Shown: positions 572 through 59,238 of the stretch, one piece after another
Numbering within the stretch: the stretch's first letter is position 1
Layout of the letters: each line of letters opens with the position of its first letter
DNA from: an uncultured bacterium
GTDB lineage: Bacteria > Verrucomicrobiota > Verrucomicrobiia > Verrucomicrobiales > V1-33
Assembly: GCA_903954065.1 (NCBI GenBank)
Contig: CAJBME010000310.1
Coordinates: forward strand, 8,854 to 72,853
Direction: 5' to 3'
DNA length: 64,000 bases
Position numbers and translations under genes: made by a program
The notes under the pieces: generated by a model
What the model was told of the DNA's origin: nothing
Seen by the model: only the letters and a program-made list of their open reading frames with translations
The model's database searches: none

Positions 572-2326
572 TTATTTCACGATGCGGTAGTAGACGTTGG
601 CATCCGCAGCAGGTTTAGCTGTCGTGAAGGTGACAGTGCCGTCAGCCACAACGGGTACATCCGTCAAGGTAGTCCAGGACACCAGATTCGTGCTGCGGGC
701 CAGTTGGTAGGTGGCGGCGGCGTTGTTTGGCTTGAAGACGATGATGAGGTTGTTGCCACTGGTGGTGATGGAACTGATGGCATCGGTATCAGTTGGAGCG
801 ACCAATAAGGTCTGAAGTAGTTCATAGGATTCGGCAGACTCCGGCGGGGCTGTTTCGCTGACCCCCATGTGGATATAGACCGTGCAACCGGCCCCAGCGG
901 AACGTTCCCAGTGGATGAAATCCACGTCATGGAGACCTGCTATCAAGTCCACTGACATGACGGTATTTCCACGACCGCCATTTCCACGGCTGCCAATTTC
1001 CACGTCGTCAATCTTCAGGACAAAGCCGTCGTCACTGTTGCAGATGAACCAGCATTTACCAGCCTTGGTAGTGGAGATCCTGCCACGGCAGCGGATGGCG
1101 AAGTCATTGCGATCCCCTTGTCCGGTGCCACCGGCTCCAGGACTGGTATTGAGGGCCTCATCCCACAGCGGGTAGGGGCTGGAAAAGGCTTCATGGTAGG
1201 GTGCCCCGGCGTTGTCATTGAAATGGATGTATCGTGTCTGGACGGTGATCTGGTCTACGGCTGGGATCCCGGAGGGGTCTTCCAGCGCTGCCAAGACACC
1301 ATCCGCATCGTTCATCTGGGGATTTCCATTGGGCCAGATGTGCTGGGTGGTGAAGGTGCCCCCGCCCACAATGATGGAAACGAATGGCACCCGCACGGTG
1401 CGGGTTCCGGTAACGGCCAGGTTCGTCGTCGTCGTAACCGTGGGCTGGATGCTTAACAGAGCCCCAGCATCAAAGGGCGCGGGATTGGTATAGCTCAGTG
1501 TCGTGATGGCACCTGTCTTAGAAATGACGGTAGGGGTGACGGCCACATTGTCGATGAGCATCGACCGCGTTTTGGCCACGTCCACGAAGCTGGTAGCAGT
1601 ATCGGTGAATGTAACGGAGATGGTATTGCCGGAAAGAGTCGCCGGGCCTGCCTCTATGCCCGTGAATGCCCCGGGCACTACGTCGAGTCCCATTCTGGTG
1701 AATTCGGCCTCCTGCCTGCTCCCCGCCCTGATCCGGACAGTGAACACGTCGCCAGCCACACCGGAGAGTTCGAACACGGCCCATTTGCCAAGGGTGCCAC
1801 CCGTCTCGTTGACAAGCAAAATCTCGCCACTGTCGGCCCCTCCCGCACCGGTGATTTGGAAGCCGGTCGAATTATAGTTCGCATTGTCATTACGCACATC
1901 GTAAAGCATTGAAATGCGGAAGGTCTGGTCTGCGGTCAGCGTGATCGTTGCCGCATCGTGCCAGGTAAGGTTACCGACAGGCCAGAGGTAACGGGTTTGG
2001 GCGTTCTCGTCAGCGATCTCTGGCCCAATGGCAGAGAAAATGTCATCCACAGCAATGTAGGCCGCGTTGGGGGCGTCCTGTTCGCCGCCGACAAAATCCA
2101 GCGCCGCCCAGGAAGGATCTAAAAAAGTGCTGGTCTTCATGTATCCAGCAGTGCCGTAGGCATTATCGCCGTCGAGATCCAGTGGTTTGGCCACGTCGGT
2201 TGACCGCCAGGCGCCTTGGGTTGTTTCATCGTGGGCGATGAATGTGGCTGTCGCCGCGAAGGCGGCGGGAGCTCTGCCCAGACCGAAGAGAAGGCCCGCG
2301 GTGAGAATCAATTTTGTAAATTGCAT
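572..2326 (-). CDS. secreted PA14-like domain protein with shared C-terminal tail
   Basis: Track ORF is 572..2383. I prefer the ATG at 2326, which gives MQFTKLILTAGLLFGLGRAPAAFAATA (signal peptide). PA14-like stretch DFAIRCRGRISTTKAGKCWFICNSDDGFVLKIDDVEI. Ends ...TYQLARSTNLVSWTTL...VYYRIVK. Confidence 0.85.
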   Translation of the reverse strand: MQFTKLILTAGLLFGLGRAPAAFAATATFIAHDETTQGAWRSTDVAKPLDLDGDNAYGTAGYMKTSTFLDPSWAALDFVGGEQDAPNAAYIAVDDIFSAIGPEIADENAQTRYLWPVGNLTWHDAATITLTADQTFRISMLYDVRNDNANYNSTGFQITGAGGADSGEILLVNETGGTLGKWAVFELSGVAGDVFTVRIRAGSRQEAEFTRMGLDVVPGAFTGIEAGPATLSGNTISVTFTDTATSFVDVAKTRSMLIDNVAVTPTVISKTGAITTLSYTNPAPFDAGALLSIQPTVTTTTNLAVTGTRTVRVPFVSIIVGGGTFTTQHIWPNGNPQMNDADGVLAALEDPSGIPAVDQITVQTRYIHFNDNAGAPYHEAFSSPYPLWDEALNTSPGAGGTGQGDRNDFAIRCRGRISTTKAGKCWFICNSDDGFVLKIDDVEIGSRGNGGRGNTVMSVDLIAGLHDVDFIHWERSAGAGCTVYIHMGVSETAPPESAESYELLQTLLVAPTDTDAISSITTSGNNLIIVFKPNNAAATYQLARSTNLVSWTTLTDVPVVADGTVTFTTAKPAADANVYYRIVK

Positions 2327-2356
2327 AGGTCCAAGGGGAAAGGAAGCTAGGGTTTC

Positions 2357-2383
2357 ATTAAAATTTAAAAAAATCCACGTCAA
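2357..2383 (-). promoter_or_regulatory. candidate sigma70-like promoter for the PA14-like gene
   Basis: On the minus strand: TTGACG (2383-2378), 15 nt spacer, TTTAAT (2362-2357), inside an AT-rich patch about 30 nt upstream of the ATG at 2326. The spacer is short and PVC promoter rules are poorly known. Confidence 0.3.
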
Positions 2384-2584
2384 TATTTATTTACCTGATG
2401 GGATTTGGAGGTGAAAAAGGGACCCCCCAACGGAGAGCAGACATTCCTGTCCGCCTTTCCCTCCAAGAAGCGGGTTGGAAAACCCTCTCTCCGTTGCTTG
2501 GAGGCAGCGGACTAGAAAGCGGATGAGGGCCAGCCGTCGAAGAGTCCAGACGGTAGCCAGACCGTCGCGGTCTGGATTATTTGC

Positions 2585-2607
2585 AAAACCAGAGCGAGAC
2601 GCTCTGG
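2585..2607 (-). terminator. rho-independent terminator downstream of the DsbD_N-like gene
   Basis: Minus strand reads ccagagcg-tct-cgctctgg followed by tttt, about 28 nt after the stop at 2635. A second near-identical hairpin lies at 2557-2575. Confidence 0.55.
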
Positions 2608-2634
2608 CTACCTCCCGGTCAAAGCAAATTCCTT

Positions 2635-4136: not shown

Positions 4137-4229
4137 GATGTCCTCAACTGAAAAATCACAGGGAAAAACCGCATCAGCTAAACGCTCCAAACCGAACGCC
4201 GCCGAACGCCGCATCCGGCCCGGCCACGA

Positions 4230-5744: not shown

Positions 5745-5749
5745 GTTGT

Positions 5750-8700
5750 TTATTCTGCGAGCGAGAAGCTGAGGCGGTAGTAGGTCGGCAAGGCAGCAGG
5801 CACAGCGAACGTGAACCCGCCTGCTGGGTGGGCGACTGGAATAGTCTGGTTTGGCGATGTCCACGGGCCGTTGGGGGTCTTGGTGGCCACGGTCGTCCAA
5901 CTGTCGTCGACCAGGGACGTGGTTGACTCAAGTTGTGCGATCACGGGTCGTTCCCAGGATGCGGGAAGGTGGAGGCGAAGCGACAGCGGTTCGGACGGCT
6001 CGGCCACGAGCGGAGCCACAGCGGGGATCGGGGCGACTGATGGGTCGCTATTCAACAGGAATTCAAGAAGGCTGGGCAAGCCGTCGCGATCGGGATCCTG
6101 GTCGGGGCCGTCCTCGTCCGGCGGGACGCGGCCAGCCATCCATGCGTTGAAGGCATCGAGAGCGGGCGAACCGACCCGCAGTTCATATTCGCCCGATCCT
6201 GCGGCTTCGTTTTGGACCCGGACGGTCCACGGAAGCGTCTCCTCTGGAGTCGCGGGAATACCAGGGACAGCGAACTGCAGCACGGCATTGCGACCGTCTG
6301 CGGCGCCGGCAGCCGCCGTGGCCACGATCCGGCCATTCTCATCGACCAGCGCCAGGGCTGGATTGACGTCGTGCGACAGTCGACCGGGAGGAAGCGGGGT
6401 GCGCGTGGCCAGTCGCACCGTCTCGCCGCGCTGGACGGGCAGCGACCATGTGTCAGTGCCGGAAGCGAGCGGAATGCCGGGCGGAGTGCCGAAGGTCAGA
6501 GAATCGATCAACACGCCTCCTGACGGACTGACAGCCCAAAATTCGAACTGTACGCCCTCCGGACCGACCTGACCGCGCAGCGCGCCGCGGCTGGCATTGT
6601 AGCGGAATAGTGACTGGGGCACCGGGCGGTCTGCGAGTTGGTAGATGGAGCTTCCCCCGAGGCCGACGACAAATTGGGTCACGCCATAACCCATATCCAG
6701 ACGCTCATAAATGTGATCATGGCCGGTGATGACGGCGGTCAGGCCTTTGAGGTCAGCGCCCCACTGGAGCAGCAACTGACTGCCATGAACTCCGCCGGAG
6801 GAATAAGGAGGGTGGTGCCAGACGCCGAATTTCCACCGCGCCCCGGACGCCGCAATCTGCTCGCGCAGCCACTGCCGCTGAGTATCGCGCGCCGCGGTAT
6901 TCACCATGGCATTGTCTGAATCGAGGAAAAAGAAGTCCGCCGCGCCCCACGACATCTTGTAATAACTCAGACGCGGGCGATGGACGCCTTCGGGAATCCG
7001 GGGTTCCCCGCCAGGGTTCGAGTGGAAATAATCGAGATACGACGACAATTCACCGCCGTTGGATGAATCTGGACCGCTGTCGTGGTTGCCGGGGACCGGA
7101 AAAAACCGTTGGGTCAAGCTGGTCTGTTCCGGGTACCGGTTGTCGACGCGCCGCTTGATGAACTCGCCGTAGAAGGCGCCTACATTTCGTCCCCACGTGG
7201 CCTCGCCGACAGCATACCCCAGCGTGTAATTGTGATCGCCGGCCGCGACGAGAAAATCTGGCTGCCATGATTTGACTAAGGTAGCCACGGCGGCTTGATC
7301 AGGTGTTCCTGATCCATAGTCGGCGAAGGCGGCGAAGCTGAAGCTACCCCCGGGCGGAACGGCAGTAGCGGCGCTGGCCCCATCCAGGCTGCCCGTGGCC
7401 GCGCGGGTGACGAGTGGCGGCGCCCCGGGCAGCGCCTGATAGGTATGATTCTCAGGATAAAGCTCTAGCGAGTAGGTGGAAGAACGAATACCTTGCACTA
7501 CCACGCGGCAAGTGCCGGCCGCGGGCATCGTGTACTGCAGAGAGGCTGACAGCGGATCGGCAGGATGAACCGCACTCTGGGCCAGCACCTCACCCGCCGG
7601 GGTGGTCAGGGTGAATTTCTGAGCCGGATTGGATTGGAGAAGCAGGCGGACGGTTTCGCCGGCAGCCGCAGTGAAGGAGTAGTAGTGAGGAGTCGCGGAC
7701 GCGGCCACAGTGCTGGTATAAACGGCTGCGCGCAGAAGTCCGTTGGCTCGAGCGGCATCGAGGGAATACGGCAAGGCCGGATTGGTCGGCTGCCCGGACA
7801 CCCCGCCATTGACCAGCACGGAAACGCGGGAACGCCCGAGAGTCCCCCGGTCGCCAATCAGCAGCTTGTAGGTACCATCCTCGAGAATGGGCAGATGCTC
7901 AAGCGAGTTGCCCGAGCGCACTCCCCCAGTGAGCGCCCTACCAGCCGCATTCACCACCTCGATTTTGCCGATCGGCACATCGCCCGTAATGCCCACCAGA
8001 ATCGAAAGCGTCTGCCCTGCCCGCAGGGCCAGCAGGTGATCAATCGTTCCAGTGGCCGGGATGGATACCGAGTTCGCGATGGCGGCAAACAACTGACTGC
8101 CTTGCGGCCCGACGCGCTGGAGCGGTCCGATGTCCAAGTCGTCGCGCACCTGAATGCGCACGGGCGCAGGCTCTGACCATCCGTCTTTATCCCGCACCTG
8201 ATAACTAAATCCAGCCAGGCCCGCGAAATCAGGATCTGGAGTGAATTTATAGCGACCGTCCATGCGTTCCATGTCCGTGACCACGCCGTTCTTCACATCG
8301 ACGGCCCGGACCTCAAGAATTGGGTCAAACGCGACACCCGCGGAGTCAAACAATCCATCGTTGGCTAAAAGCGAGGGTGACGTCGGCTGTAATTGATCCC
8401 GAACAGTGTCTTCGGTTAGAATAAAGTCACCGTCCGCCTGAAGCACCGGCGGGATACGTGCGTCTGCCACCTCGATCACGACCGTGCCTATCAGCGGCGG
8501 GACATTGGGCAATTCATACTCGTCTCGGTACTGGAACGTATCGCGCCCGAAAAAGTTGGGCAATGGGGTGTAGATGAAATCGCCGGTTGGACCGAGATTG
8601 AGTCCGCCTTTGGTGGGGGCGAGATGACGTTTGACGAGCCCCATGCCCTCGTCATTTCTGACGACGTTGACCCCGGTCAACAGCTGCCCTTGGGTAATGG

Positions 8701-11890: not shown

Positions 11891-14014
11891 CTAAACGCCC
11901 ACTCTCAATTGAGGTTCAGGGACTTCTGTTGATAGCTCATTGGCCGACCAACTGAGCCGGTAGAAGGCATTGGTACCGGTGTACGGCAGCGTGATCAGCA
12001 ATGGCCCGTTGTTACCCTCGATGATTTCACCGACGTTCGTCCATGTCACTTTATCCTGCGACGTCTGGAGTTGATACTGGGTGGTATTGCGCGAAATCCA
12101 TGTGATCAAAAGGTCCTCATGGGCTACGCCTTGATCGTCGGTCCATGCGAGCAGTTCGACCTCCACATTTTGCGGGGGCTGAGGCGCCTTGGTCGGGAAG
12201 GGCTGGAGTTTGGTGCGCACCGCCTGCTGCAGCATGACTTGCATGCGGCGCCGTTTGGCCACCATGGCCGGTGTCGCCCGGGTGGGTAGGCCGCGGAGTC
12301 TGCGGATATTTTCTGCCCAAATCGAGAGATTTACGTACTCGACCGGCTCACCGGTGGTACCGCCCAACCCATTATCTAAGTCCGTATCCGTGCCGCCTTT
12401 GGCCTTGGTCCGCACATCATAAAACTCGCCCTCGGGCAATTCCACTCCGTCGGCGTCGAAATAATACACGTATTTCGATTCCTTGTCTCGCAGCGCGCGC
12501 ACCCGGTTGGGCGGCGACACAACGCCGTTCGGAAAGGTCTCGGTGCTCTGGCCGGCATAAATGTCGTCAAAGGTGAGCAAAATGGCATCCTGCACCGCCT
12601 TACCACGTGGGTTTTTGACCAATGAACTGTAATCCACCCCGCTGAAACGATATTGTTTCGGATTGATGCCCAACATCGAGCAGACGGTGGGCAGGAAATC
12701 GACATGCGAAACCAGCTCTGAACAGACTTTTCCGCCAGAGGCGAAATCGACCGGATTTGACCACACCATGGGAACTTTGATGGTCTCTTCGTAGGCGCAA
12801 AATCCTTTTTGGCGCAGCCCGCCATGGCTCAGTCCCAGCTCGCCATGATCCGCGGTATGGACGATCCATGAATTCTCCCGCAAAGACGTGCCTCGAATGA
12901 GATCGAGGACCTTTTTGAACTCAGCATCAACGAGTTTCAACGCGTTGGCGTAAAAATTCATGTAGTTTAAGCTGCCGGTGCCGCTTTGATCGGCGACTTC
13001 GGGCAACGCCCCGAGCACTATATTGCTGACAATCGAGTATTTCGCCTGCGTACTCGGCTTCAGATTGAGGGCTAGCTTCTCGTTGTAGGTCGGAGCGTCC
13101 TTCGTCAGACTGCCGGATAAGATGCTGCGGTCATAGCCCCAAGTCGGTTCGGTGGTGGCTTTCGGAAAATCTCCGCTGTAGGTCGGATACCCGATCACAT
13201 CATGCGGGTTCACCAGCGAAACAATCAAGCAGAACGGTTTGGTGCCAGGGTTCTTCAGCTTGTGCGACAGATAGGCCAGCGCGCTTTGCTTCTGTAAATC
13301 CGGATTAATACCACCCGCGCCGTCGTTGGCTGTCCAGTCATACCCTTCCACCACCCGGCCGTCCTGATTATATTTGCCACCACCATACAAACGAGCCGGG
13401 TTAGCGTCCGATCCAATGTCCGGACCATTCCATCCGTCAAATCCATTGCGGCTCGGGTCATCGTCAATTTTCACCCCGTCCGGCCGGACAATCCCTTCGG
13501 TCAAATGCCACTTCCCTTTGTATACCACTTCATATCCCGCCGCCTGCAAAACAGTGCCCAAATTCGGAACGGTCGGATCAAGCTGATTGTCCGCCACCGT
13601 GCCAATGTTCACCTGCTGCACCGTATCCGCCGCCCGATGCTGGGCCGGATAGAGGCCAGTGAAAAGCGTGTTCCGCGCCGGCGTGCACATCGCCGTGTTA
13701 GAAAATGAATTCTGAAACGTCACGCCAGTCCGCTTCAGCTCCGTCAACGCCGGGCGATTCGCCTCCTCCCACCCTTCAGGAAACCACATCGTCGGACGCT
13801 CCTGATCCGTGAGAAATATAATCAAATTGCGCCGCTTCCGCGACGCCCCGCGCTCCACCTGACGCGCCGATGCCTCCACCGGCCAGACCCCAACCGCCCC
13901 CGCCGCCACCATGGCCACCCCCGACTCGCCTGCCACTTTGAGGAAATCACGCCGCTTGAACTGCGCGAGCTCTGAAGCATCAGAAGTCGCTAACTCGGAA
14001 TGGATGTCGTTCAT
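11891..14014 (-). CDS. Tat-exported sulfatase (formylglycine type) with shared C-terminal tail
   Basis: Twin-arginine motif FKRRDFLKVAG. Sulfatase signature NLIIFLTDQERP and CTPARNTLFTGLYP (C-x-P-x-R). C-terminal ~90 aa are non-catalytic (TQYQLQTSQDKVTWTNV...NAFYRLSWS). Confidence 0.9.
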   Translation of the reverse strand: MNDIHSELATSDASELAQFKRRDFLKVAGESGVAMVAAGAVGVWPVEASARQVERGASRKRRNLIIFLTDQERPTMWFPEGWEEANRPALTELKRTGVTFQNSFSNTAMCTPARNTLFTGLYPAQHRAADTVQQVNIGTVADNQLDPTVPNLGTVLQAAGYEVVYKGKWHLTEGIVRPDGVKIDDDPSRNGFDGWNGPDIGSDANPARLYGGGKYNQDGRVVEGYDWTANDGAGGINPDLQKQSALAYLSHKLKNPGTKPFCLIVSLVNPHDVIGYPTYSGDFPKATTEPTWGYDRSILSGSLTKDAPTYNEKLALNLKPSTQAKYSIVSNIVLGALPEVADQSGTGSLNYMNFYANALKLVDAEFKKVLDLIRGTSLRENSWIVHTADHGELGLSHGGLRQKGFCAYEETIKVPMVWSNPVDFASGGKVCSELVSHVDFLPTVCSMLGINPKQYRFSGVDYSSLVKNPRGKAVQDAILLTFDDIYAGQSTETFPNGVVSPPNRVRALRDKESKYVYYFDADGVELPEGEFYDVRTKAKGGTDTDLDNGLGGTTGEPVEYVNLSIWAENIRRLRGLPTRATPAMVAKRRRMQVMLQQAVRTKLQPFPTKAPQPPQNVEVELLAWTDDQGVAHEDLLITWISRNTTQYQLQTSQDKVTWTNVGEIIEGNNGPLLITLPYTGTNAFYRLSWSANELSTEVPEPQLRVGV

Positions 14015-26926: not shown

Positions 26927-26944
26927 GAAATCTTTGTCGTGCAC

Positions 26945-31136: not shown

Positions 31137-32825
31137 ATGAAAAGCCAAATATTGCAACCCTCCTCCCGAGTCTTACTTGGAGCGATTTCTATGGGTCTAT
31201 TTGGAGTCACCGCCAATGCCACAATTCTCACATTTAGAACAGACACGGCAAAGGTTCCGGTCTACACCACGATGGACGCCATTCAAGATTACGGAAGCAA
31301 TGTGGCTGCCGACAGCGTGATTTCTGGCCCCTACACCTACTACTACGACATGGGCAACGGGTGGACCCCCGATGTAACGGTCCGATACTCCACGGAATCA
31401 CCAACGGATTTTCCGGAGTACTATGGCGACAGCAATGGAGACAGCGTCTGGCCTGGCGTGCTTTTCTTATGGTCCCATCTTTTTAGTGGTGGAGACGGCC
31501 AGTCGTTGGGCACGAAAATGCCCATTGGTTATGAGTATTACGTCACGTTCACTCCCAGCGCAGCCAACAAAGGGGTATTCCTTAATAGCTTCGTCTTAAA
31601 CGACTATGGCGGCTACACCGCGCCGGGGTCACCTCCTCAGGAAGTGCAATGGCGAGTAGCCATGGGCAGTCCGTCGGGCACCCTCGTGGCTTCAGGTTCG
31701 GCCACGCTTCAAGACGGTGATATATCCACCATCTCCACAGGAATGACAGCAAGCCAAGCCAGTCTGGAGCCGCTGGTCCTGGTCATCAAACGCACAGGGG
31801 GCACTGAGGACGATCTAGCCGTCGATGACATCGATTTTGACCAAACAGAAATCGTTCCCCCCACCATTTATAACAATGCTGTGCGAGCAAGTAATCCGAA
31901 GTATTACTGGACATTCGATGAAACGGGTCTAACGAGTGCCAAGGAACAGATGGGTGGCAATACCGTCGACAGCTTCAACCCGAGTGCCGAATCTGCGAAG
32001 GCGCCATCCACATCCATTTCCGGAGGAATCAGCTTGGGTCAGGCGCTCTCTTTGGATAACACCGTGACCAGCGTGTGGAACACCGGTGACCTGTCTGGCC
32101 CGGTCTTCTCTGGAGCTTGGGCCTACGAAGTGTGGATCAAAGCCGCCGACCCGCTCGCGTATCAATATATCGTCGGATCCCAAGCCGAAAATGGCTTCAA
32201 TACAGGAACAATCGCCCAGGCTTCGAATTTCCAGAACGACCCCGGAAATCCCCGTATCATCCTGTTTACACTCATGAGTGCCCCGCATTCCTTCAATTCT
32301 GACAGCGCGCCCCAGAGCGACGGATGGCATCATTGGGTGTTTGTGACCAAAACGCCGACGCAGGGAACGGATGTCTATCGCGACGGCGCTCGCCTCGGAA
32401 CATTCGGAAACGGATCCGTAATCGCTCCATTCCCCGCTCGCGAGCTGCGGGCAGGTGGATGGAGCCCGACACCCAACAGCGAGAATTTCACCGGCCTGAT
32501 CGATGAACTCGCCATCTACGACCTCGCTGGCCTAGACGAAGGCGCTCTGGCTGCCAAAGGTCAGGAAATCGCGGGTCATTACCGGATGGGCAGTGTCGCT
32601 CCCACCCTCCAATTCACTCACGTATTCCGCCATCCAGAGAATGGCCAATTGTCGCTGACCTGGGCGTCTGAGCCGGGGAAAACGTATCGACTCATTGCTT
32701 CAACAGATTTGGTTGGTTTCAACACGGTGATCGCTGAAACTATTCAGTCTGGCGGAACGAGCACGACCTATGGTCCATTCGCTAGCTCTCTCCCGACAGT
32801 GTTCTTCAAAGTAAGCGAAAAGTAA
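31137..32825 (+). CDS. secreted LamG-domain protein with shared C-terminal tail
   Basis: Signal peptide LLGAISMGLFGVTANA. LamG-type segment (WAYEVWIKAADP..DGWHHWVFVTK..FTGLIDELAIYDLAGL). Tail GKTYRLIASTDLVGFNTV...TVFFKVSEK. Visibly lower GC than its neighbours. Confidence 0.88.
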   Translation: MKSQILQPSSRVLLGAISMGLFGVTANATILTFRTDTAKVPVYTTMDAIQDYGSNVAADSVISGPYTYYYDMGNGWTPDVTVRYSTESPTDFPEYYGDSNGDSVWPGVLFLWSHLFSGGDGQSLGTKMPIGYEYYVTFTPSAANKGVFLNSFVLNDYGGYTAPGSPPQEVQWRVAMGSPSGTLVASGSATLQDGDISTISTGMTASQASLEPLVLVIKRTGGTEDDLAVDDIDFDQTEIVPPTIYNNAVRASNPKYYWTFDETGLTSAKEQMGGNTVDSFNPSAESAKAPSTSISGGISLGQALSLDNTVTSVWNTGDLSGPVFSGAWAYEVWIKAADPLAYQYIVGSQAENGFNTGTIAQASNFQNDPGNPRIILFTLMSAPHSFNSDSAPQSDGWHHWVFVTKTPTQGTDVYRDGARLGTFGNGSVIAPFPARELRAGGWSPTPNSENFTGLIDELAIYDLAGLDEGALAAKGQEIAGHYRMGSVAPTLQFTHVFRHPENGQLSLTWASEPGKTYRLIASTDLVGFNTVIAETIQSGGTSTTYGPFASSLPTVFFKVSEK

Positions 32826-36935: not shown

Positions 36936-36966
36936 GGAAATCAATAATTTCGCTGACGGGAGCCCC

Positions 36967-38642: not shown

Positions 38643-41600
38643 CTATCTCAGTCTGACCTTAGCCCGAAAGAAAACCTGATTCCCTCCGCTGGCGGAAGTC
38701 GGAACCCGGAAGATCAAGTTTGAGGTGGTGGTACCGATGAGGTCCGCCGGCGCCCAGCCGGTGAGTGCGGTGGAGACTTCGCCCGTAAGAAGGACATCGT
38801 CGGCACCAGTCATCACCGGCACCGTGAAGGTCATTCCCTCCGGCCCCGCAGCGGAGGTGATGATTGGATTCGGCCCAAGGGCGTATTCGATCAAATTACT
38901 GTATCCGTCGCTATCGGTATCGCCACCGGGATCGCCCGTGAACGGGATCGAGTCAGCGACACCCGGATTACCTCCTGACTGGGCGCTGGAACGCCAGTGG
39001 GTCGCCACCGTGTGGTCAGGATTGGTCGAGGGCGCGATGAGAACAAGGCTCGGTCCGTGACCGTCGGCAGCAGCGGGCCATGGAAAGCTGTCATCGTAAG
39101 CAAAACTCTTCACTGGCAGCCCGTCGGCTCCGGTGAGTTGGACGGCCTCACCGCCATTGTTCAGAGCGGTCGCGTTCGTAAAGGCTCCGGGAGCCAGCAC
39201 CCCAACCGCTCCAGGATGGCGCATCAAAAAGGCGGCGCGTTCACGGGCGACAACCAGGCGCTGGCCAGGCTGCATCATCGTCCCAGCGGTAAAGTCATAA
39301 GCGAGGCCCTCCGTGAATCTCACCCCTGTCATGTCCACAACCGCAGCGCTGATGTTCTGCAGTTCGATCCATTCGAATTGATCCGAATCGACAAATCCCG
39401 CAGCGATCTCCTCAGGTGTCGGATCGGCGGGGTGATACATGAGTTCGGCGACGACAAGATTCGACGCTGATCCGGGCTGAACGGTCGTGGTGTTATTGAT
39501 CGTGATATTCGTGGTGCCGATGACGACACCGGCGATGTCAACCGCCTCCAGAGCGAGTTCATGGCTACCGGGAGCGGCGGGCACAATCGCCTGCCAAGCG
39601 CTTCGGCCGGTCCATGTGACGGCGAGCGGCTCCGGGCTACCGGCGATGCGAATGTCACGCACGTTGACCCATCCATTGCCGGCGATGGTGGCTGTGCTAG
39701 CAGCCACCGTCAGTGGGCTGGTTGTGGTGATGGCAAAGTTGACGGAAGGAATCTGCGACCTGATCTGCGACAGCACGCTATTTGAACGACTCGTCATGTA
39801 GTTCAAGTGGCTGGTCCACGGCTGCGAGGGATCAAGCGCCGCGAAGTGGCTCGTCCATGTGGACATGTACTTATTATTATACGTCCTAGAAATGATGTCG
39901 TGAAGGTGGCCCAGATACTGCCGACGACGGGCCGGATTCACCGTGAGGGCGGCGCAATGCGGGTTGTTGAAAATGGTCAGTCCAGAGGTGTAGCCGTTAT
40001 CCATGTCGTGCGGCAGAAAGATGACCCGCCCGTCCGGGCGGGCATAAATCCAAGCATTGTGCTGTGAGCCGTCGCCGGCGAAATTGTCTGTGGCCCCTGA
40101 AAGCACGGCGCAACTCAGACCGCGAAACCAGCCGTCAAGATCGATGAGGTTTTTCACATCCGCTTCAAAAGCCGCGCCGGACTTGCTGAACATCTTCGCG
40201 TAGTTCATCAGCGGAATGAAGTTGTCGGCCTCGCGGTGGTTTTTGTTCATGAAATGCCAGCGGTAGCGTTCGGGGTCGTTACCTTGGCCGGAAAATGGAA
40301 GCCCAATGACGTCGTCGGGTGATGGATAGTACAGCTTGTTTTGCTTCGAGTCAGCGCTGGTAGGATAATACACGAGTTCGTATTCGTAGAGGTGCCCTTC
40401 CTCGCCATCCTCGAACTGTTCTTCGAGGAATAAGTCCTCGTAGCGCGCCATCTGCATGATGGCGCCACCGGTCAGTGAATTGTTCGGGGCCAGGAGTTTG
40501 ATGAAATCGTTGTATCGGCTGATGGGGCCGCCGGCATTCGAGATCATCACATCAAAGAGAAGTTCGCGTTGCCCGGGAGCTTGCCCTTCCGAGCGATCGA
40601 GGTTCAACGAATCATGGACGCCGCGGAATAGCCCGTCGCTGGGAAATGTCAGGTTATAGCCGACCCGCGTGAGTTGGTTGCGTCCGCGCTCACTGCTTTT
40701 CAGATGAACGCCCACCCCGTAGTAGATGTCGTTTTCACGGTCGATCACGGTGCAGCCGATGAGGTCATTACTCATGGTGTTGTAGTTCGTATGCATCCAA
40801 GTCCGGTCGGCATTGGTCGTGATGACGCGGAAATTGTGCCAGCCGTTGGTGGCTGCTTGATTGTCATTCACCTTGTAAAGTGCGCGGGAATCGGGGCCCG
40901 TCGCCGGGTGGAAAGCATGGACGCCAGAGCCATCGGTGCCGCGGACATAGAACTGCACGACCGCCCCGGCTGGTTGGCCGGGGATACTGCCAATAAACTT
41001 CCCATCGCCGGAGGAGGCCATGGCCGCACTGGCAAAGGCCGCACCATTCACCGAGTAATAGAGCGTCATTTCGGAAACAGTGTCGGAATCGCCGGCCGTA
41101 CAGGAAATAGTGGTTTCGACCCCGGCGGAAGGGACCGCGGGCGAGTGTTTGAGGTGGCTGAACGTCGGGCCAGCGTTCGCTGCCGCGCGAGAGTTCACGG
41201 CTCCTGGTGTGCCGGGGTTGACGACCCGGTCGAGGACGTTCACCCGAGCGGCGCGGTTGAAGTAGAGACGGGTGTGAAGCTGGTGGGCGCCGGTCACCCA
41301 GCGCGCCCGGAAGCGGATCTCGTACTCGCGACCGTTGACCACGGTGGAACTCAGCGTGGTGGCAATGTGATTGTGAATGTGTTCGGTCGGGCCGCCGGCC
41401 ACGAGGCGGAGGATGTTGTTGCCGGGATTACCGGGTTCAGGAATGACTTCGCTGGATCGGTGATTACCAGTGCGGCGCCACGCCGCCGCATTGTCAAAGG
41501 CGGAATCGGCAATCTTCGGTGTCGCTGCAGCAGACGGCTGCTCAATCACTTGAAGGTCATCGATCCATATTTCGCCCGCGCTCAGCAGGCCCATGTTAAA

Positions 41601-43718: not shown

Positions 43719-45689
43719 CTAGGGCTTGGTTTCCCGCACGCGGTAGAATGCTTGCGGGAGATTGGCAGCGATAGTGTCCACGTACATCGTCTGATTTCCG
43801 CCGGAAACAAGCGCATCGGTCAGTTCCACCCATCCGCCCGGCTGGCCGGCTGAGGTCAATGTGGTGGAGAAATCGACGGCGTATGTGCGACCGGGACGTG
43901 AGAGGATCGTGAGCGTCGCGGACGTCCCTCCAGATGCCCGCGTGATACTGGCAATTTCCAACGGTGTCTGCGCGGCTGGGTTCATGATCGAGGCGATGAT
44001 TCCGTCACCCAGAGGAACGCGGTAGAGGCGAACGTCATCGATGAGCCCCTCAAAGCCCTCGGTGTCGTTGTGGCGAGTGCCAATATTCATGAAGTCGCTT
44101 CCGGGATTCGCGGGAGGCAGGCCGGGGCCGGAAAAGACTTTGAACCCGTTGACGAAGAGAGACATATCCTGAGGTCCTGAGCCCGCGTTGCGCCAAGCGA
44201 CATGCACCCACTCGTTGAGGAAAAGCGCGACCTCCGTGTTGTGCCATCCCGTTTGCTGGTAGTAGCTGAGGGTCAGATCAGGCGCCCCACCGACAGCGGC
44301 CCGGTTTCCAATCGCAGTTTCAAATCTGTCCCCAGCGCGACTGGTCAACCGCTCAAGGCCAGCGCCCTCCTGCAATGTCGTCGGTTTAACCCAATAGCTG
44401 AGCGTGAATGAGTTTGACGAGAGCGAGTCGCTTCCCGGCACATTGACCCCCATATTGTTCGCGGTGAGCGCCAAGGCTTGGCCACCGCCCGGGCTGTCCT
44501 CGTTCGCAAAAGCGGCATCGCCCAGAATTGATCCGTGGTTGGCCGATGGGGAACTATCTTGGGCATCTCCCTCCAATTTAAGGTGTAGCGTCAAGTAAAG
44601 CGACGGTGACGGCGCGCTGGTGGCGCTGACCGGATTGGTGCCAGCTGCGATTTCCAGTCCGTCGGTGAAAAAGTCCCCATCGGTGTCGGCGAGGAGCGGG
44701 TTGGTGGCGCGGACGTTCATCTCGTCTCCGTCCGAAAGCCCGTCCCCATCGGTGTCCGCCACGGTCGGATTTGTGCCCAAAGTCATTTCCGGACCATCCT
44801 TGAGCCCGTCGTCGTCCGTGTCAGCATCATTAGGTTTCGTCCCCCGAGCCAGCTCTTGGGCATTGGTGAAGCCATCAGTATCCAGATCGCCGGCAGCGCC
44901 ATTCGCTCCGGTATTGTCGTTGGGATTCAAACCGTTTGGCGTTTCCCAAGCGGTCGGTAAACCATCTCCATCGCTGTCATCGAAGAAATTCGCGACACCC
45001 ACGGCGGCGATGATGCTGATATCAACGGGGGTCAGGGTCCCGTCCCAAAGAAAGACGTCATCCATGAGACCATCGAACCCTTCCTTGTTGTTGAAAGCGG
45101 TGCCCAAATGCATGAAACCACTAGGGTCCGGGACCCGCGCCCCCGTGAAGGCCAATACCCCGTCAAGGTACAATTCCATGGCGCTCGCTGTATTGCGCCA
45201 CGCCACATGGCTCCAACCTGAGGATGGCACGCTCACGGCCGTAACCACCCAGCCAGTCGCGGGGCTGTAGTAGGAAAGCCCACCGGTAGTCCCGACTGCC
45301 GTCTCGAAGCTATAACCATCCCGCGAGCTCAGTCGCTCAAATGGGCCACTTTGAGGCATATCGAGAAGATTTATAAAATAGCCGAGGGTAAACTCGCCTG
45401 AGTCGAGCGCAGCGTCGGCCTCGAGGCGCACGCCTTCCGAGTCCTCATCGAACCGCAGTGACTGGCCACCCAGTCCGGCCGGAACGTCTCCCTCGTAGGT
45501 AAGCGTGCCTAATTCGCTCCCATGGAGTCCGTTGTCGGAATTATCAATCAAGTTGCCGCTCAATGGCCACCAGCCGAGCAGTCCTGCGGCTGCACCCCAT
45601 GGGGCCAAGAACGCGCTGACAGCGATGGCCGCTAACCACCGGGTTTGGGAACCCGTATTCGAGGTAGAGAGAGATTTTAATTTCTTCAT
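43719..45689 (-). CDS. secreted 2x LamG + TSP3-repeat protein with shared C-terminal tail (paralog of 16489..20529)
   Basis: Signal region WLAAIAVSAFLAPWGAAAG. LamG ends GFDGLMDDVFLWDGTL and GFEGLIDDVRLYRVPL. DxDxDG repeats (DSDGDGLPTAWE, DTDDDGLKDG, DTDGDGLSDG). Tail GRTYAVDFSTTLTSAGQPGGW...AFYRVRETKP. Confidence 0.9.
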   Translation of the reverse strand: MKKLKSLSTSNTGSQTRWLAAIAVSAFLAPWGAAAGLLGWWPLSGNLIDNSDNGLHGSELGTLTYEGDVPAGLGGQSLRFDEDSEGVRLEADAALDSGEFTLGYFINLLDMPQSGPFERLSSRDGYSFETAVGTTGGLSYYSPATGWVVTAVSVPSSGWSHVAWRNTASAMELYLDGVLAFTGARVPDPSGFMHLGTAFNNKEGFDGLMDDVFLWDGTLTPVDISIIAAVGVANFFDDSDGDGLPTAWETPNGLNPNDNTGANGAAGDLDTDGFTNAQELARGTKPNDADTDDDGLKDGPEMTLGTNPTVADTDGDGLSDGDEMNVRATNPLLADTDGDFFTDGLEIAAGTNPVSATSAPSPSLYLTLHLKLEGDAQDSSPSANHGSILGDAAFANEDSPGGGQALALTANNMGVNVPGSDSLSSNSFTLSYWVKPTTLQEGAGLERLTSRAGDRFETAIGNRAAVGGAPDLTLSYYQQTGWHNTEVALFLNEWVHVAWRNAGSGPQDMSLFVNGFKVFSGPGLPPANPGSDFMNIGTRHNDTEGFEGLIDDVRLYRVPLGDGIIASIMNPAAQTPLEIASITRASGGTSATLTILSRPGRTYAVDFSTTLTSAGQPGGWVELTDALVSGGNQTMYVDTIAANLPQAFYRVRETKP

Positions 45690-54300: not shown

Positions 54301-55599
54301 GTTCGTCTGCTGTAATACAGGATCATCTACCACCACCTGGCTGGGGCGACTGCTGGCGAAGACACCATAGAGCGCATAAAAGTCCTTTTGGCTAATCGGG
54401 TCAAATTTATGATCGTGACAGCGGGCACAGGAAACGGTGAGCCCTAGAAATGTTTTTGAGAATACATCAATCTGGTTATCAACGACTTTCACCTGATCAT
54501 CTAATGCATCCACCGGTACATACCCTAATTCGACCATGCGCAAATACGCTGGGCCAAGCATGGATTCGTTCAATCCCTCAGCGCGATTCAGCCGCGGATT
54601 CGGCAGCAGATCCCCAGCGATGTGTTCGCGGACGAACTGGTCGTAGGGCACGTCGTCATTGAAGGCGCGGATGAGGTAATCCCGGTAACGCCAGGCCATC
54701 GGCAATTCCGGATCGCCTTGGCTACCGTGAGACTCACAGTAACGAACGAGATCCATCCAATGCCTCGCCCAGTGCTCGCCAAACCGTGGCGAGGCCAGCA
54801 GGCGGTCGACTTGCCTGCTGTAAGCATCCGACGAATGGTCGCGACAGGAGTCCTCGATCTCTTCGGCGGTAGGCGGAAGCCCGGTCAATGCGAACGTGGC
54901 GCGCCGCAGCAACGACTCGCCACCGGCCGCGGGAGAGGGCCGCAGCCCGCGTTCCTCCATTTTCGCTTGAAGAAAACGATCGACCGGATGCTCCGACCAC
55001 GCGGTGTCCCTCACCTTGGGAATAGCCGGCTTGCGCACTGGCTGGAAACTCCACCATTCTGCGCGCGCTTTGAGCGTAGCAGCCCAACTGGCATTGTCCG
55101 TCGTCACCGTCTCACCCACCGTCGGCGGCTGGTCGCGCGGATCAAATGCGCCCTGATTCACCCAGGCCACAAAATCCTCGATGACAGAATCCGCAAGCGC
55201 AGGTCGATCCTTCGGCATTTTCGAATCCGGGGCCACGTGGCGGATGCTTTGGATGAGCAGGCTTTTGTCTGCATCACCCGGAATGACCGCCGGGCCGGTG
55301 TCTCCGCCTTCGAGGAGTCCGTCTCGAAAATCCACGCGCAGTCCGCCCTTTTGCTTATTCGCCCCGTGACACTCATAGCACTCGTTGACCAGCATCGGCC
55401 GGATGCGTTGCTCGAAAAAATCAATCTGTTCTGGAGTGGCCGAAAGCGCGGTCTGAACGAAAACAGTAAGAATAGTGAGAGCAATCCAAGTGGCTCCAGT
55501 CGGTGCACGGTTCGACCACCTGGTCCGATCGCGCTGATGGCCGAGGTCGGCCTCGGTCGGTGCGACCGTGACGCGCTGAGATTTTGAAATTGCCCTCAT
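51373..55599 (-). CDS. PSCyt1 (CxxCH) - DUF1549 - LamG - DUF1553 multidomain protein
   Basis: Heme-c-type motif [44 protein letters not shown]. LamG-like insert ([18 protein letters not shown]). DUF1553 region ([24 protein letters not shown]). Start at ATG 55599 (MRAISKS...) or 55665. Confidence 0.9.
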
Positions 55600-55785
55600 G
55601 TATCGAGTGGGGCAGCCCGGTAAGCGGGATCGTCGAGAACCCAAGGGATGCCTTATGACATTCATAGACGGAAGGCAGGCCGTTGCCTATCATCCAATGC
55701 CCTAAAGAGACGTGCGATACATGACGATGACCCGTCCGGGGCCGCAGCATCATGAGGGTAAACGAGACAGCGATTTTTCTTTCTT

Positions 55786-55814: not shown

Positions 55815-55944
55815 AATGAGAGGATCTCATCTCGCTGGTGGTAGCTGCGCACCAGCAGCCCCCCCCATGAGCCCCTTCCCCCCACCTGATTCGCGCAAGC
55901 CTCCCTCATGATGCTCCCGCTCCAACGCAAATCCCTACCAGCTC

Positions 55945-58900
55945 ATGCCTTCTACCTCCATTTGCCGCCGCGCCGCGCTTCAGGCGCCGTTGATGGCTAG
56001 TCTGGCCGCCTTGTTTGCTCTCGCTGCCTTTGCCTTCATCTCCCTCATCGCGCCAACGGCCGCCGCCTCTTCTTACAGCAGCTCGCTGGTTCATGGCATG
56101 ACGGCGACTAGCAGACGAGGCAGTGAGCCCCGCCAGATGGTGCGCCGAGGGCAGGAAATCCTCTTCTGGGCATCGGATCCTGCCCATGGCAATGCCCTAC
56201 GTCGCCTCAATCTGACTACCGGCCAGGTCAACATGGTTTGGGATTTCAACCTACCCTTCAGTCAAATCAGCAGCCAAGGCACGTTCGCTCACCTCCCGGT
56301 TGACCAAGGATGGGTGATTTTATTACGCGACGCCGTCTGGCGCACCGACGGCACGCCGGCAGGGACCAGCCGCCTACTCCAGTGGAAAACAGAAAGTGGC
56401 GGAGCTGACCGCAGCCAGATCGTCCACGACGGCATCGCTTATTTCAGCGCCGAAGACCCCGCGCACGGCCACGAACTCTGGCGCAGCGACGGCACGCCCG
56501 CAGGCACCTGGATGGTCAAAGACCTGCGCGTCGGCCCGGATAGCAGCCAGCCGGAACACTTCGCGGTCGTGGGCCGCCGGATCTTCTTCGCCGCCGGCGA
56601 CTCCGAACACGGCGTGGAACTGTGGGTCACAGACGGCACGGCCGACGGCACCCGCCTCGCCGCCGACCTCGTGCCCGGATTTTCCAGCGGCCTACCCCGC
56701 GACCTCTGCGGTCTGGGCGAAACCGTTTTCTTCGAAGCCTCAGCCGGCACTCTGGGACGCGTGCTCTGGCGCAGCGACGGCACACCCGAAGGCACCCGCG
56801 TGGTCAACGACTCCCCGACGGGCGATCCCCCGAAAACCCCCTCCACTCTGATCGCTGTCGACAACTGGGTCTATTTCACCGCTCACACCAATGCCAACGG
56901 TCGCGAATTGTGGAAAACCGACGGTACCGCCGCCGGCACTCGCCTCGTCCGCGACCTGTGGCCGGGACGCGACGGCAGTGAGCCTAGCCACCTTCAGGCC
57001 GTCAACGGCCGCGTCCTCTTTACGGCGTACTTGACCGGGGACACCAATCAACCTCGTCTCTTCACCAGCAATGGCACCTCCGCCGGCACGGTGGCCATCC
57101 AATCATCGTCCCTGCGACCGAAGTGGATCGGGCCGGGCGACGCTAATGGCGGACCGACCATGGCCGATGGGGCCGCTTGGTTTATCGCGAGCAGCGGTTC
57201 CAGCCTCCACTCCGGACTCTGGCGCACCGACGGCACCGTCGCTGGCACCCGTCAAGTGTATGCCCCTGCGCCCGCCACCTGGACAGCCTCCGTCGCGCCG
57301 ATCCTCGCTGTCGACGGCCATCTCATCCTCACCGGCTCGACGCTTGGCGATCCACCCACCAGCGGCGAAATCTGGAAATGGAACATCGAAGGCCGCACGC
57401 TTCAGCCCGTGGCTGATCTCTGTCCTGAAGGATGGGACGCGCCACCCAGCCACCCGCTTTCCACCCCACTTGGCTTCTTTTTCCGCGGTTTTTCGCCCGC
57501 CGCAGGATTCGAGCTCTGGCGCACCTTGGGCACGCCGGCCACCTCCACCCTCCTCAAAGACCTCCAGCCGGGCTCCGTCAGCGGCTTCGGTGGCTCCGAC
57601 CAAAACATCCTGAGCGTAGGCCCTGCGGGCCACGTTTATTTCCAAGGGGCGACTCCAGCCGCCGGCGCAGAACTCTGGCGCAGCGACGGCACCGCCTCCG
57701 GCACCACCCTCGTCCGCGACCTAGCCCCGGGATCAAAAGGAAGTTTTCCCTCCGGACTAACCGCCCTCGGAGACGGCCTCGTCTTCGCCGCCTCCGGAAA
57801 ATTATGGACCAGCAATGGCACCGGCGACGGTACAACGGCAATCCTGCCCATGGCTCCCAATACGGAGGAAAGCCGACCGGAATTTCTCACCCGCTTCGGT
57901 GACCGCGTCTTCTTCAGCGCCAGCGACGCGACTCACGGCACCGAAATCTGGTCGTCCGACGGCACCGCTGCGGGTACCCGCCTACTCCGCGACCTTTACA
58001 CCGGAACCGGCACCGTCTGGCCCCGCCTCTTCGGCACCGCGGGTCCCCTGCTGTTCTTCGAACAACACGGAACCGCGCGCGATTACGGACTCTACGCGAC
58101 CGACGGAACCAGCGACGGAACCCGCAGGCTCTCGGATGCCCGGCCCTTCAGCCCAGGCGATGCCGCCAGCATCGGCCCTGACTTCTACTTCGTGCACGCC
58201 CCGACTCCCGATTCCCAGTCGCTCTGGCGCTCCGACGGCACAGCGAACGGCACGCGTCAAATCACGACCCTCGCCGCCACCCGCTTACCGGAACCCGGAT
58301 GGCGCTTGACCGCCGCCGGTCCCTTCGTCTTTTTTCACCTCCGGGACATGGTGCTCGGCAACCAGCTCTGGCGCAGCGACGGCACCGGCGCCGGCACCGT
58401 GGCCGTCGTTCCCGAAACCCCGGCCTGGGACCCGATCCGCAACATCGAATTGCTCGGCAGCATCGGATCCGAAGTCTATTTCGCCGCCACCACCTACCGT
58501 CACGGCCGTGAATTATGGGTCAGCGACGGCACCGCGACCGGCACCCAGCTGGCCCTCGACCTCGGACCGGGCGAAACCTCCGGGCTGCCGCTCTGGATTG
58601 GGTGCCACGGCGACCGCCTCTTCGGCCTCTTCGCCGCCGACCCGCAGTCGGGGTCACCCAGCATACGCTCGGTGGTCCCACCAAACGCGCGCCCGGTTTT
58701 CCTCGGACTCGAAATCGACACCTGGCCGGACGTGCCGACCCAGTTCTCCGCCGAACGTCTGCGCTCATTGATCGAAGCGCCTCCCGACACCCCGCTGGAA
58801 CTAGTGCCCGCCAATCCGATCGGCACGGCCGGAGGAGGATCGTTGACGCTAGCCCTCAGCACGGCCGGTGGATCGTGGACTCTAATCGACGACCTGTTCA

Positions 58901-59238
58901 CCTACTCGCCGCCCCCGGGCCATCTCGGTAGCGACCAGTTGCCGCTAGAAATCCGGTACCCCGGTGGCCCGCCGCTCACTACCTTTATCCAAGTCACGGT
59001 GCAGCCGACACCCCCCACCCCCACTCTGGAACCCACCCTAACCCGCCGCTCGTCCGGCCCCATCGAAGTGCGCGCCTTCACTCGCCGCGGTCACCGCCAC
59101 GCCTTCGAACGCAGCCTCGACCTCACCGTCTGGACCCCTCTGGAAATCCGGGTGCCCACCACCTCGGAACCGTCGCTCTGGATCGACCCCGCCCCACCAT
59201 CACCCGCCGCTCATTACCGCTTGCGCGTCGTGCCGTGA
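55945..59238 (+). CDS. ELWxxDGT-repeat protein (beta-propeller-like) with shared C-terminal tail
   Basis: Signal region LMASLAALFALAAFAFISLIAPTAAA. About 16-17 repeats of ~48-50 aa (HGHELWRSDGTPAGTWMVKDL, HGVELWVTDGTADGTRLAADL, ...). Ends AAHYRLRVVP. Confidence 0.9.
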   Translation: MPSTSICRRAALQAPLMASLAALFALAAFAFISLIAPTAAASSYSSSLVHGMTATSRRGSEPRQMVRRGQEILFWASDPAHGNALRRLNLTTGQVNMVWDFNLPFSQISSQGTFAHLPVDQGWVILLRDAVWRTDGTPAGTSRLLQWKTESGGADRSQIVHDGIAYFSAEDPAHGHELWRSDGTPAGTWMVKDLRVGPDSSQPEHFAVVGRRIFFAAGDSEHGVELWVTDGTADGTRLAADLVPGFSSGLPRDLCGLGETVFFEASAGTLGRVLWRSDGTPEGTRVVNDSPTGDPPKTPSTLIAVDNWVYFTAHTNANGRELWKTDGTAAGTRLVRDLWPGRDGSEPSHLQAVNGRVLFTAYLTGDTNQPRLFTSNGTSAGTVAIQSSSLRPKWIGPGDANGGPTMADGAAWFIASSGSSLHSGLWRTDGTVAGTRQVYAPAPATWTASVAPILAVDGHLILTGSTLGDPPTSGEIWKWNIEGRTLQPVADLCPEGWDAPPSHPLSTPLGFFFRGFSPAAGFELWRTLGTPATSTLLKDLQPGSVSGFGGSDQNILSVGPAGHVYFQGATPAAGAELWRSDGTASGTTLVRDLAPGSKGSFPSGLTALGDGLVFAASGKLWTSNGTGDGTTAILPMAPNTEESRPEFLTRFGDRVFFSASDATHGTEIWSSDGTAAGTRLLRDLYTGTGTVWPRLFGTAGPLLFFEQHGTARDYGLYATDGTSDGTRRLSDARPFSPGDAASIGPDFYFVHAPTPDSQSLWRSDGTANGTRQITTLAATRLPEPGWRLTAAGPFVFFHLRDMVLGNQLWRSDGTGAGTVAVVPETPAWDPIRNIELLGSIGSEVYFAATTYRHGRELWVSDGTATGTQLALDLGPGETSGLPLWIGCHGDRLFGLFAADPQSGSPSIRSVVPPNARPVFLGLEIDTWPDVPTQFSAERLRSLIEAPPDTPLELVPANPIGTAGGGSLTLALSTAGGSWTLIDDLFTYSPPPGHLGSDQLPLEIRYPGGPPLTTFIQVTVQPTPPTPTLEPTLTRRSSGPIEVRAFTRRGHRHAFERSLDLTVWTPLEIRVPTTSEPSLWIDPAPPSPAAHYRLRVVP
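56150..58560 (+). repeat. coding tandem repeats (ELWxxDGTxxGT units)
   Basis: The nucleotide word ctctggcgcagcgacggcac recurs at about 56477, 56763, 57673 and 58366 (near-copies at ~57219 and ~58222), with a period of ~145 bp and divergent intervening sequence. Confidence 0.8.

Follow-up and report, generated by a model that had tools for sequence, protein, structure and literature searches.

Many extracellular enzymes of bacteria carry fibronectin type III (FN3) domains as accessory parts; these domains form beta-sandwiches and occur in tandem arrays. Another small C-terminal beta-sandwich, the C-terminal domain (CTD) of the type IX secretion system (T9SS; Por_Secre_tail, PF18962/TIGR04183), is found on diverse exported cargo of Bacteroidota and is weakly conserved in sequence; to our knowledge, sorting tags of this kind are single-copy. 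Non-covalent surface anchors are usually built as tandem binding modules at the end of varied cargo, as in SLH, LysM and choline-binding repeats. It is poorly understood how bacteria of the Planctomycetes-Verrucomicrobia-Chlamydiae (PVC) group bring their many polysaccharide-degrading enzymes and giant adhesins onto the outer membrane or past it. FN3-type domains have documented roles in secretion or export elsewhere: in Pel3/PelI, loop 3 of the Fn3 domain is a key determinant of secretion by the type II system (T2SS), whose signals are regarded as composite and specific to each protein (PMC7949064), and the secreted form of Xanthomonas CbsA lacks a C-terminal FnIII domain on which SecB interaction and efficient export depend (PMC9190976). 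Here we analysed a C-terminal tail shared by eight exported proteins encoded in 64,000 nucleotides of DNA from an uncultured Verrucomicrobiales bacterium (contig CAJBME010000310.1 of assembly GCA_903954065.1, forward-strand positions 8,854 to 72,853), hereafter the window. As judged from sequence, this tail represents a large, unannotated and position-restricted FN3 subfamily.

The eight tail-bearing open reading frames (ORFs) were confirmed at the coordinates given, each with the described tail at its end, and their combined length of about 25.3 kb agreed with the ~25 kb given by the sequence-only reading, an earlier annotation made from the letters of the window. Searches with Pfam found Calx-beta, Big_9, Cadherin_5 and Metallophos domains in the N-terminal part of the 5750-11218 protein, TSP3 repeats (TSP3_bac, PF18884) in the 16489-20529 protein, LamG in the 31137-32825 protein, four LTD domains and CotH in the 38643-43610 protein, and LamG and TSP3 in the 43719-45689 protein. 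The 11891-14014 protein has a Sulfatase domain and a Tat-type leader, and the ELWxxDGT repeats of the 55945-59238 protein matched NCBIfam TIGR04534 (E 3e-162). The 572-2326 protein had zero Pfam matches, leaving its earlier label as PA14-like without Pfam support. The eight had also been called unrelated, which went too far, as the 16489-20529, 31137-32825 and 43719-45689 proteins have LamG or TSP3 parts in common. A signal peptide (Sec, or Tat for the sulfatase) was visible at 8/8 N-termini, the one of the 5750-11218 protein being less certain.

Pairwise BLAST of the last 100 residues connected six of the tails (those of the 572-2326, 11891-14014, 16489-20529, 31137-32825, 43719-45689 and 55945-59238 proteins). 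Pfam and NCBIfam models were silent on the tails of all eight proteins, even in scans of the tails by themselves at E<=10. When a six-tail profile was run with HMMER against 1.84 billion protein cluster representatives, 4964 proteins matched at E<=1e-3, of which 196 reached E<=1e-10. An index-based protein search with this profile or with the 38643-43610 tail alone returned only short fragments, and tblastn of the family consensus against plasmids gave zero matches. Two hidden Markov models (HMMs) built from outside proteins only, with the window proteins excluded, were tested on all 685 six-frame ORFs of the window. The first recovered exactly the six tails at E 1.7e-23 to 2.8e-10, the second recovered the same six at E 2.5e-18 to 2.1e-8, and nothing significant was found in the 685 ORFs beyond them. 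The consensus of 327 outside copies (..vvLTWtgqpGrtYqvqaSTDLvtWttl...rRFYRv..) reproduced the landmarks picked out by the sequence-only reading, namely xLxLxW, GxxYxLxxSTDLxxW and [FY][FY][RK][VLI] near the end.

The tails of the 5750-11218 and 38643-43610 proteins belong to a second subtype. The main-family HMM reported nothing for the 5750-11218 tail even at E<=50, and the 38643-43610 tail, matched at the right position, was its best hit below significance (E 0.38). An outside protein, P0149, has the layout of these two proteins, DxDxDG..NLLEYALGGNP followed by the tail, and a search seeded with it found 22 outside proteins, in 22/22 of which the tail was C-terminal, ending ..RRFLRLxVxxP. 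An HMM of this LEYALG subfamily, made from 20 outside proteins with orthologues of the two window proteins left out, matched both window tails, and the subfamily pattern DxDxDG..[NS]L[LI]E[YF]xLxxxP, followed by a beta tail of ~70-100 residues ending [FY][FLY]R[LA]x.., was present. The same HMM also matched the 572-2326 tail (E 5.9e-4) and touched the TSP3 repeats of the 43719-45689 protein. Near-identical fragments of the 5750-11218 tail were found in metagenomes (P0167, P0168). The beta part of the subfamily aligned to the main family (hhalign 97.5%, E 5.9e-12). Since the two prefixed tails match the subfamily and the subfamily aligns to the main family, profile comparison places the eight tails in one superfamily, six in a plain subtype and two in a subtype preceded by a TSP3-like prefix of calcium-binding type, and the claim that all eight share a tail held. 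The tails and adjoining elements are as follows, with E-values from the two outside-only HMMs unless the subfamily HMM is named.

578..772, minus strand: short FN3-like tail of the 572-2326 gene (E 9.5e-18 and 4.9e-13), ending YYRIVK and then a stop
5753..6040, minus strand: LEYALG-prefixed beta tail of the Calx-beta/metallophosphoesterase giant (subfamily HMM, E 9.8e-9, HMM positions 1-86), ending TYYRLSFSLAE
6041..6103, minus strand: TSP3-like motif of calcium-binding type, DQDPDRDGLPSLLEFLLNSDP, directly 5' of the preceding tail, read from the sequence and aligning with the DxDxDG..NLLEYALGxNP block that 20 outside proteins carry
11942..12151, minus strand: short FN3-like tail of the Tat-sulfatase (E 3.4e-13 and 4e-10)
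11894-11941, minus strand: extension of the sulfatase behind the module, SWSANELSTEVPEPQLRVGV, ~16-25 residues depending on the profile chosen, with a similar extension in the outside relative P0011
20287..20523, plus strand: short FN3-like tail of the 16489-20529 TSP3 protein (E 4.3e-20 and 5.2e-16), ending AFYRVRDVTK
32598..32819, plus strand: short FN3-like tail of the 31137-32825 LamG protein (E 3.8e-20 and 1.1e-15), ending VFFKVSEK
38646..38864, minus strand: LEYALG-prefixed beta tail of the LTD/CotH giant (subfamily HMM, E 4.7e-8), ending VFFRAKVRLR
38865..38921, minus strand: TSP3-like motif, DTDSDGYSNLIEYALGPNP, directly 5' of the preceding tail, read from the sequence and aligning to the subfamily block
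43725..43964, minus strand: short FN3-like tail of the 43719-45689 LamG/TSP3 protein (E 1.7e-23 and 2.5e-18), ending AFYRVRETKP
59020..59232, plus strand: short FN3-like tail of the ELWxxDGT-repeat protein (E 2.8e-10 and 2.1e-8), ending AHYRLRVVP

The calcium-binding-like motif that had been reported ahead of two tails was thus present at ~6041-6103 and 38865-38921 and is TSP3-like. The DxDxDG..LEYALGxNP prefix resembles the bacterial TSP3 repeats (PF18884) of the 16489-20529 and 43719-45689 proteins but is a single copy fused to the tail and forms its own subfamily, and Pfam TSP3_bac was silent on both prefixed proteins. Between the 16489-20529 and 43719-45689 proteins the tails were the best-conserved part at 58% identity, compared with ~39% for the TSP3 regions, and the LamG domain of the latter was not covered by any alignment to the former at E<=1e-3. 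We also considered recent gene conversion or a mobile cassette as the source of the shared tails. These were rejected because DNA similarity among the tails was low; only the tails of these two proteins matched as DNA, at 75% over 89 nt.

The fold of the tail was predicted using AlphaFold2. The 16489-20529 tail was modelled as a small all-beta sandwich (pLDDT 87.5, pTM 0.71) and the 38643-43610 tail (23 sequences) as a short helix and six strands in a small sandwich (pLDDT 79.9); the secondary-structure strings of the tails gave five or six strands, the last being the FYRV strand. Foldseek comparison of the tail model with the PDB returned nothing significant, and the highest TM-scores (0.62-0.66) were to FN3-type domains, with Pel3 (4u49; probability 0.98, E only 0.35) tied with 2kha at the top at 0.66. 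The best PDB sequence match of a window-only profile was 3mpc, an 'Fn3-like protein' of C. thermocellum, which aligned over strands B-F and showed the tryptophan, the tyrosine and the tyrosine corner. The tail carries the hallmark pattern of bacterial FN3 domains (PF00041; 3mpc) over strands A-F, with LxW in strand B, YxV..S.D...W in C-C', a Y.D in strand E and, in strand F, YYRV as the tyrosine corner. What the family conserves is the core set of FN3, namely the W of strand B, the Y of strand C and the tyrosine corner of strand F. The window-only profile matched P0022, a protein of Pfam fn3 repeats, at E 1e-33. Pfam fn3 itself (PF00041) was silent on every tail and on the family consensus, even at E<=10.

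Outside matches split into two sharply distinct classes by the spacing between copies. Class I consists of canonical fn3 arrays, recognised by Pfam fn3 at E 1e-60 to 1e-133, in which gaps of 19-36 residues between matches accommodate the G strand and FG loop (..YYYRVSAIDAAGTSAPS..). The window tails fall in class II, which has a unit of ~72 residues and gaps of 0-16 residues between copies. Alignment of class II to class I (hhalign 96.8%, E 2.5e-10, 68 columns) went no further than template column 77 (of 107), the point at which the FG loop starts. As class II stops at this point and aligns to the fn3 arrays, the tail module is, on these alignments, a shortened bacterial FN3 derivative of ~72 residues, compared with ~90 for FN3, which retains strands A-F and ends after F, with neither an FG loop nor a G strand. 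That the G strand is lost is read from the alignment and the secondary-structure strings, and the strand pairing is likewise predicted. The short module and canonical fn3 co-occur in the same small proteins as clearly distinct units. The fold is not new; at the profile level the module is an FN3 superfamily member without the seventh strand of the A B C C' E F G sandwich. The suggestion that the tail was undescribed therefore stood in that no description of it, or of PVC C-terminal sorting by it, was found in the open-access literature searched, or in Pfam and NCBIfam, but not in the sense of a new kind of domain. Sub-threshold Pfam matches to F5/8 type C and NedA-like domains recurred, and the family consensus gave a match just below threshold to the Pfam NedA-like F5/8 type C model. 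A discoidin identity of this kind was rejected, as the module is too short and genuine fn3 arrays gave the same cross-matches; because of the latter the match is a shared local motif.

Position in the protein was assessed with multi-copy proteins classed by inter-copy spacing alone to avoid circularity. Short-module arrays ended within 9 residues of the C-terminus in 99/100 cases, as did 38 of 39 single-copy short modules, compared with 8/24 of the fn3-type arrays from the same search. In independent metagenome loci, 22/23 module ORFs ended 1-3 residues ahead of a real stop codon. The module occurs in 1-9 tandem copies per protein in the wider family and once in each window protein, where the sulfatase is the sole protein whose module is not flush with the C-terminus. 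The strict C-terminal restriction that had been proposed therefore holds for arrays and single copies as whole units, but not for the internal copies of tandem arrays or for the sulfatase with its extension of 16-25 residues. The sequence-only reading had also weighed a generic FN3 family occurring equally often internally or in cytoplasmic proteins; the FN3 kinship was found, but internal placement was not equally frequent and no cytoplasmic-type cargo was seen. Terminal and internal copies differed by only ~2 bits (two-fold cross-validation, p = 0.0035), and the residues behind FYRV in terminal copies resembled ordinary inter-module linker. In many arrays neighbouring copies were near-identical, indicating recent tandem duplication.

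These arrays could also be explained by an inert structural, stabilising or spacer domain whose C-terminal bias is a by-product of gain at the 3' end and duplication, with a G-less fold that tolerates nothing downstream; such a domain would take no part in sorting or anchoring. FN3 domains being common on bacterial extracellular enzymes, conservation limited to the core FN3 residues and recent tandem duplication would fit such a domain, and no partner was found in the window or among the neighbours of relatives. However, a terminal spacer has nothing behind it to space, and the canonical fn3 arrays of the same search (8/24) lack the positional rule. In addition, the 99% rule across 50%-identity clusters, together with a tail better conserved than its cargo, suggests selection on position. 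We regard an inert domain as somewhat unlikely; were it correct, the gain from the family would be limited to annotation.

The cargo of 30 outside proteins was of extracellular type throughout, comprising LamG, Big_7, TSP3, PPC, subtilisin P-domain, LRR, DUF11 and MBG domains as well as cohesin and the enzymes sulfatase, GH9 and multicopper oxidase; cargo of cytoplasmic type did not occur among the 30. Outside that set, a secreted nuclease and a PL8 lyase also carried the module. A crude hydrophobicity test detected a signal-like segment in 51/76 complete-looking proteins, and most of the remaining 25/76 were truncated or mis-started by the appearance of their N-terminal sequence. In a family of small secreted proteins, a signal peptide and a single canonical Pfam fn3 domain are joined to 2-6 short modules in tandem that end at the C-terminus (P0026, P0047-P0049, P0053, P0105, P0116, P0120, P0141, P0033, P0017 and P0039; loci L084-L102). 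Their genes were convergent with genes for a LuxR-type response regulator and PAS histidine kinases at 8-9 of 10 loci, and neighbourhood analysis did not find a secretion or anchoring machine beside them.

The small fn3 and module proteins bear on a reading in which the module presents an open edge, its exposed F strand being filled by a strand from an outer-membrane receptor or another subunit so that cargo is tethered or fibres are built. The module stops where the FN3 G strand would start, arrays end at the C-terminus, which would leave the last edge free, and the small secreted proteins contain no domain beyond the one fn3 and the 2-6 modules. The comparison is with donor-strand complementation in chaperone-usher pilins, incomplete Ig folds for which an N-terminal extension serves as donor; in the tail module the alignment supports a missing G strand. 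AlphaFold2 folded the isolated module confidently without a partner. The arginine-rich F strand (RFYRVR) would fit a protected rather than a sticky edge, and the window yielded neither a donor-strand motif nor a chaperone or an usher. We therefore consider an open edge of this kind very unlikely.

A role as an export-assisting FN3 domain was also weighed, in which the module is part of a T2SS structural signal or aids passage or stability during Sec export and may be trimmed later. The precedents are Pel3/PelI and CbsA, in which an FN3-type domain on a secreted polysaccharide-active enzyme contributes to secretion or export (PMC7949064, PMC9190976); the CbsA FnIII domain is C-terminal and removed, and the Pel3 structure is one of two that tie for the highest TM-score against the tail model. 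A gene for a GspE/PilB-type ATPase (T2SSE and MshEN domains) lies at 61895-63586 (+) on the window edge and would fit such a role, but may instead belong to a type IV pilus. Against this role, the Foldseek E-value for 4u49 was 0.35, which is not significant, and the Pel3/PelI and CbsA domains are canonical single FN3 domains of Gammaproteobacteria, that of Pel3 being N-terminal, in which the signal is a specific loop or a SecB contact. T2SS signals are protein-specific composites, unlike a portable repeat, and tandem copies and small, nearly module-only proteins would be unexpected. An export aid of this kind appears unlikely.

The named sources of the module were Verrucomicrobiales, Verrucomicrobiaceae, Akkermansiaceae and one Candidatus Hydrogenedentota. 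The last of these, P0080, combines a Pfam Cohesin domain with three short modules, so the module is not confined to Verrucomicrobiota, and P0089 has a similar layout by sequence similarity. Together with the dockerin/TSP3-like calcium motif that adjoins two of the window tails, these cohesin proteins hint at a cohesin-type extracellular assembly, comparable to the setting of cellulosomal X-modules. Tail genes were dense in the window, with eight in 64 kb, whereas other Verrucomicrobiota loci had two in 547 kb and loci from other phyla had none in 659 kb; the comparison loci are neighbourhoods of the asparaginyl-tRNA synthetase (AsnRS) gene and so a non-random sample. Both tails in the 547 kb were terminal and came from a single locus (L003) of a Verrucomicrobiae metagenome-assembled genome. 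One is a LEYALG-prefixed tail on a protein with Endonuclease_NS, TIG and three DUF11 domains, encoded at 5902-9375 (+) next to the AsnRS gene, and the other is a plain tail on a Big_3_5 and Ig_3 protein encoded at 919-2133 (-).

This density, the extreme C-terminal restriction and the very diverse cargo could point to a dedicated C-terminal sorting tag, a folded tail recognised by a putative PVC outer-membrane machine, much as the T9SS recognises its Ig-like CTD, that may cleave the tail or link it to the surface. Consistent with such a tag, no other C-terminal tags overlap in these proteins, the tail is the best-conserved part of the 16489-20529 and 43719-45689 paralogues, and weak sequence motifs in a small beta-sandwich also characterise the T9SS CTD. 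The known tags themselves were absent. PF18962, PF13585 (CHU_C) and TIGR04183 gave zero matches to whole proteins and tails, and the eight proteins showed no C-terminal hydrophobic helix and no NCBIfam CTERM match as a signature of PEP-CTERM/exosortase or LPXTG/sortase. No T9SS machinery genes (PorK/L/M/N, SprA, PorU/V) were seen within the 64-kb window. In excluding PEP-CTERM, LPXTG and the T9SS CTD the sequence-only reading was right, and the absence of T9SS genes that it reported was borne out within the window.

The tail-like behaviour of a sorting tag fared less well. The module forms arrays of up to 9 with internal copies equivalent to the terminal one, different from the T9SS CTD, and its host is Verrucomicrobiota rather than Bacteroidota. 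There was no conserved cleavage motif, the residues behind FYRV being inter-module linker, and no candidate sorting machinery was found in the window or beside relatives. The occurrence of the module in Hydrogenedentota also argues against a PVC machine, and a real T9SS cargo among the outside proteins, P0064, has twelve canonical fn3 repeats followed by a separate, genuine Por_Secre_tail. The tandem repeats, the equivalence of terminal and internal copies and the absence of a cleavage motif and of a nearby machine argue against a cleavable tag of T9SS-CTD type, and we think that the module is not a cleavable signal for a dedicated secretion machine. A dedicated sorting tag seems improbable to us, and the sorting or anchoring function advanced by the sequence-only reading stays conjectural.

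The design of the tail is like that of terminal non-covalent binding modules of variable copy number, and a retention or binding foot is therefore favoured. SLH, LysM, choline-binding and GW modules and cellulosomal X-modules are likewise terminal, portable, present in variable tandem copies and free of a hydrophobic anchor; the likeness is one of design only, drawn from general knowledge, with sequence or fold kinship lying outside the comparison. In this proposal, the host proteins would leave the cytoplasm via Sec or Tat signal peptides, and once outside the cytoplasm the module would fold, at the cargo's C-terminal end, into a self-contained sandwich. There it may act as a non-catalytic, repeatable, non-covalent foot that holds otherwise unrelated enzymes and adhesins on a polymer of the cell envelope or matrix, with module copy number tuning avidity or reach as in terminal SLH, LysM and X-modules. 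We hold this putative foot tentatively, as a real possibility rather than a probable one, and both the binding or retention role and its target are deduced.

Several points weigh against a foot. Ligand, partner and localisation are putative, and the family alignment did not identify a family-specific conserved surface patch that would mark a binding site. The taxonomic range rests on few named matches, and the 4964 matches of the six-tail profile include canonical fn3 proteins. A binding module needs no flush C-terminal place, so the 99% rule stays unaccounted for. The flush placement is the most interesting fact about the family and is explained fully by none of the readings. The exact C-terminal ends of the arrays would be explained if the G-strand-less tail were the address label of a surface-display pathway in Verrucomicrobiota and allied phyla, its free C-terminal module, with an open F-strand edge, being captured by an outer-membrane receptor or translocon, possibly by strand complementation. 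Such a label would be an analogue of the T9SS CTD in function, independent in evolution, and we consider it quite unlikely.

Under a near-absolute positional rule, the module marks thousands of giant adhesins and polysaccharide-degrading enzymes of this kind and is invisible to Pfam and NCBIfam. Its profile should improve the annotation of 'hypothetical' C-termini and the prediction of extracellular proteins in uncultured Verrucomicrobiota, and the tail provides a concrete handle on whether PVC bacteria have a portable retention or sorting device.

The window itself has a G+C content of ~60%, and its locus recurred in environmental assemblies from ENA and JGI; it does not represent a secretion-system locus. 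Two of its ORFs, 28731-30944 (+; 737 residues, with a signal-peptide-like start) and 25460-26944 (-; 494 residues), were without a Pfam match at E<=1e-3. Its other genes include those for AsnRS, an amidase, HtrA, SelO, a methyltransferase, a GH32 protein and an extracytoplasmic function (ECF)-type sigma factor. In a genome collection that lacked the source genome, the AsnRS was closest to those of Verrucomicrobiota metagenome-assembled genomes, with a best identity of 71% to one from Verrucomicrobiaceae. Two DUF1501 and PSCyt/PSD (DUF1549/DUF1553) gene pairs, of a type typical of PVC genomes, lie at 32953-36944 and 49914-55665, interspersed among the tail genes, the GH32 gene and the gene for a DMFA2_C-like protein.

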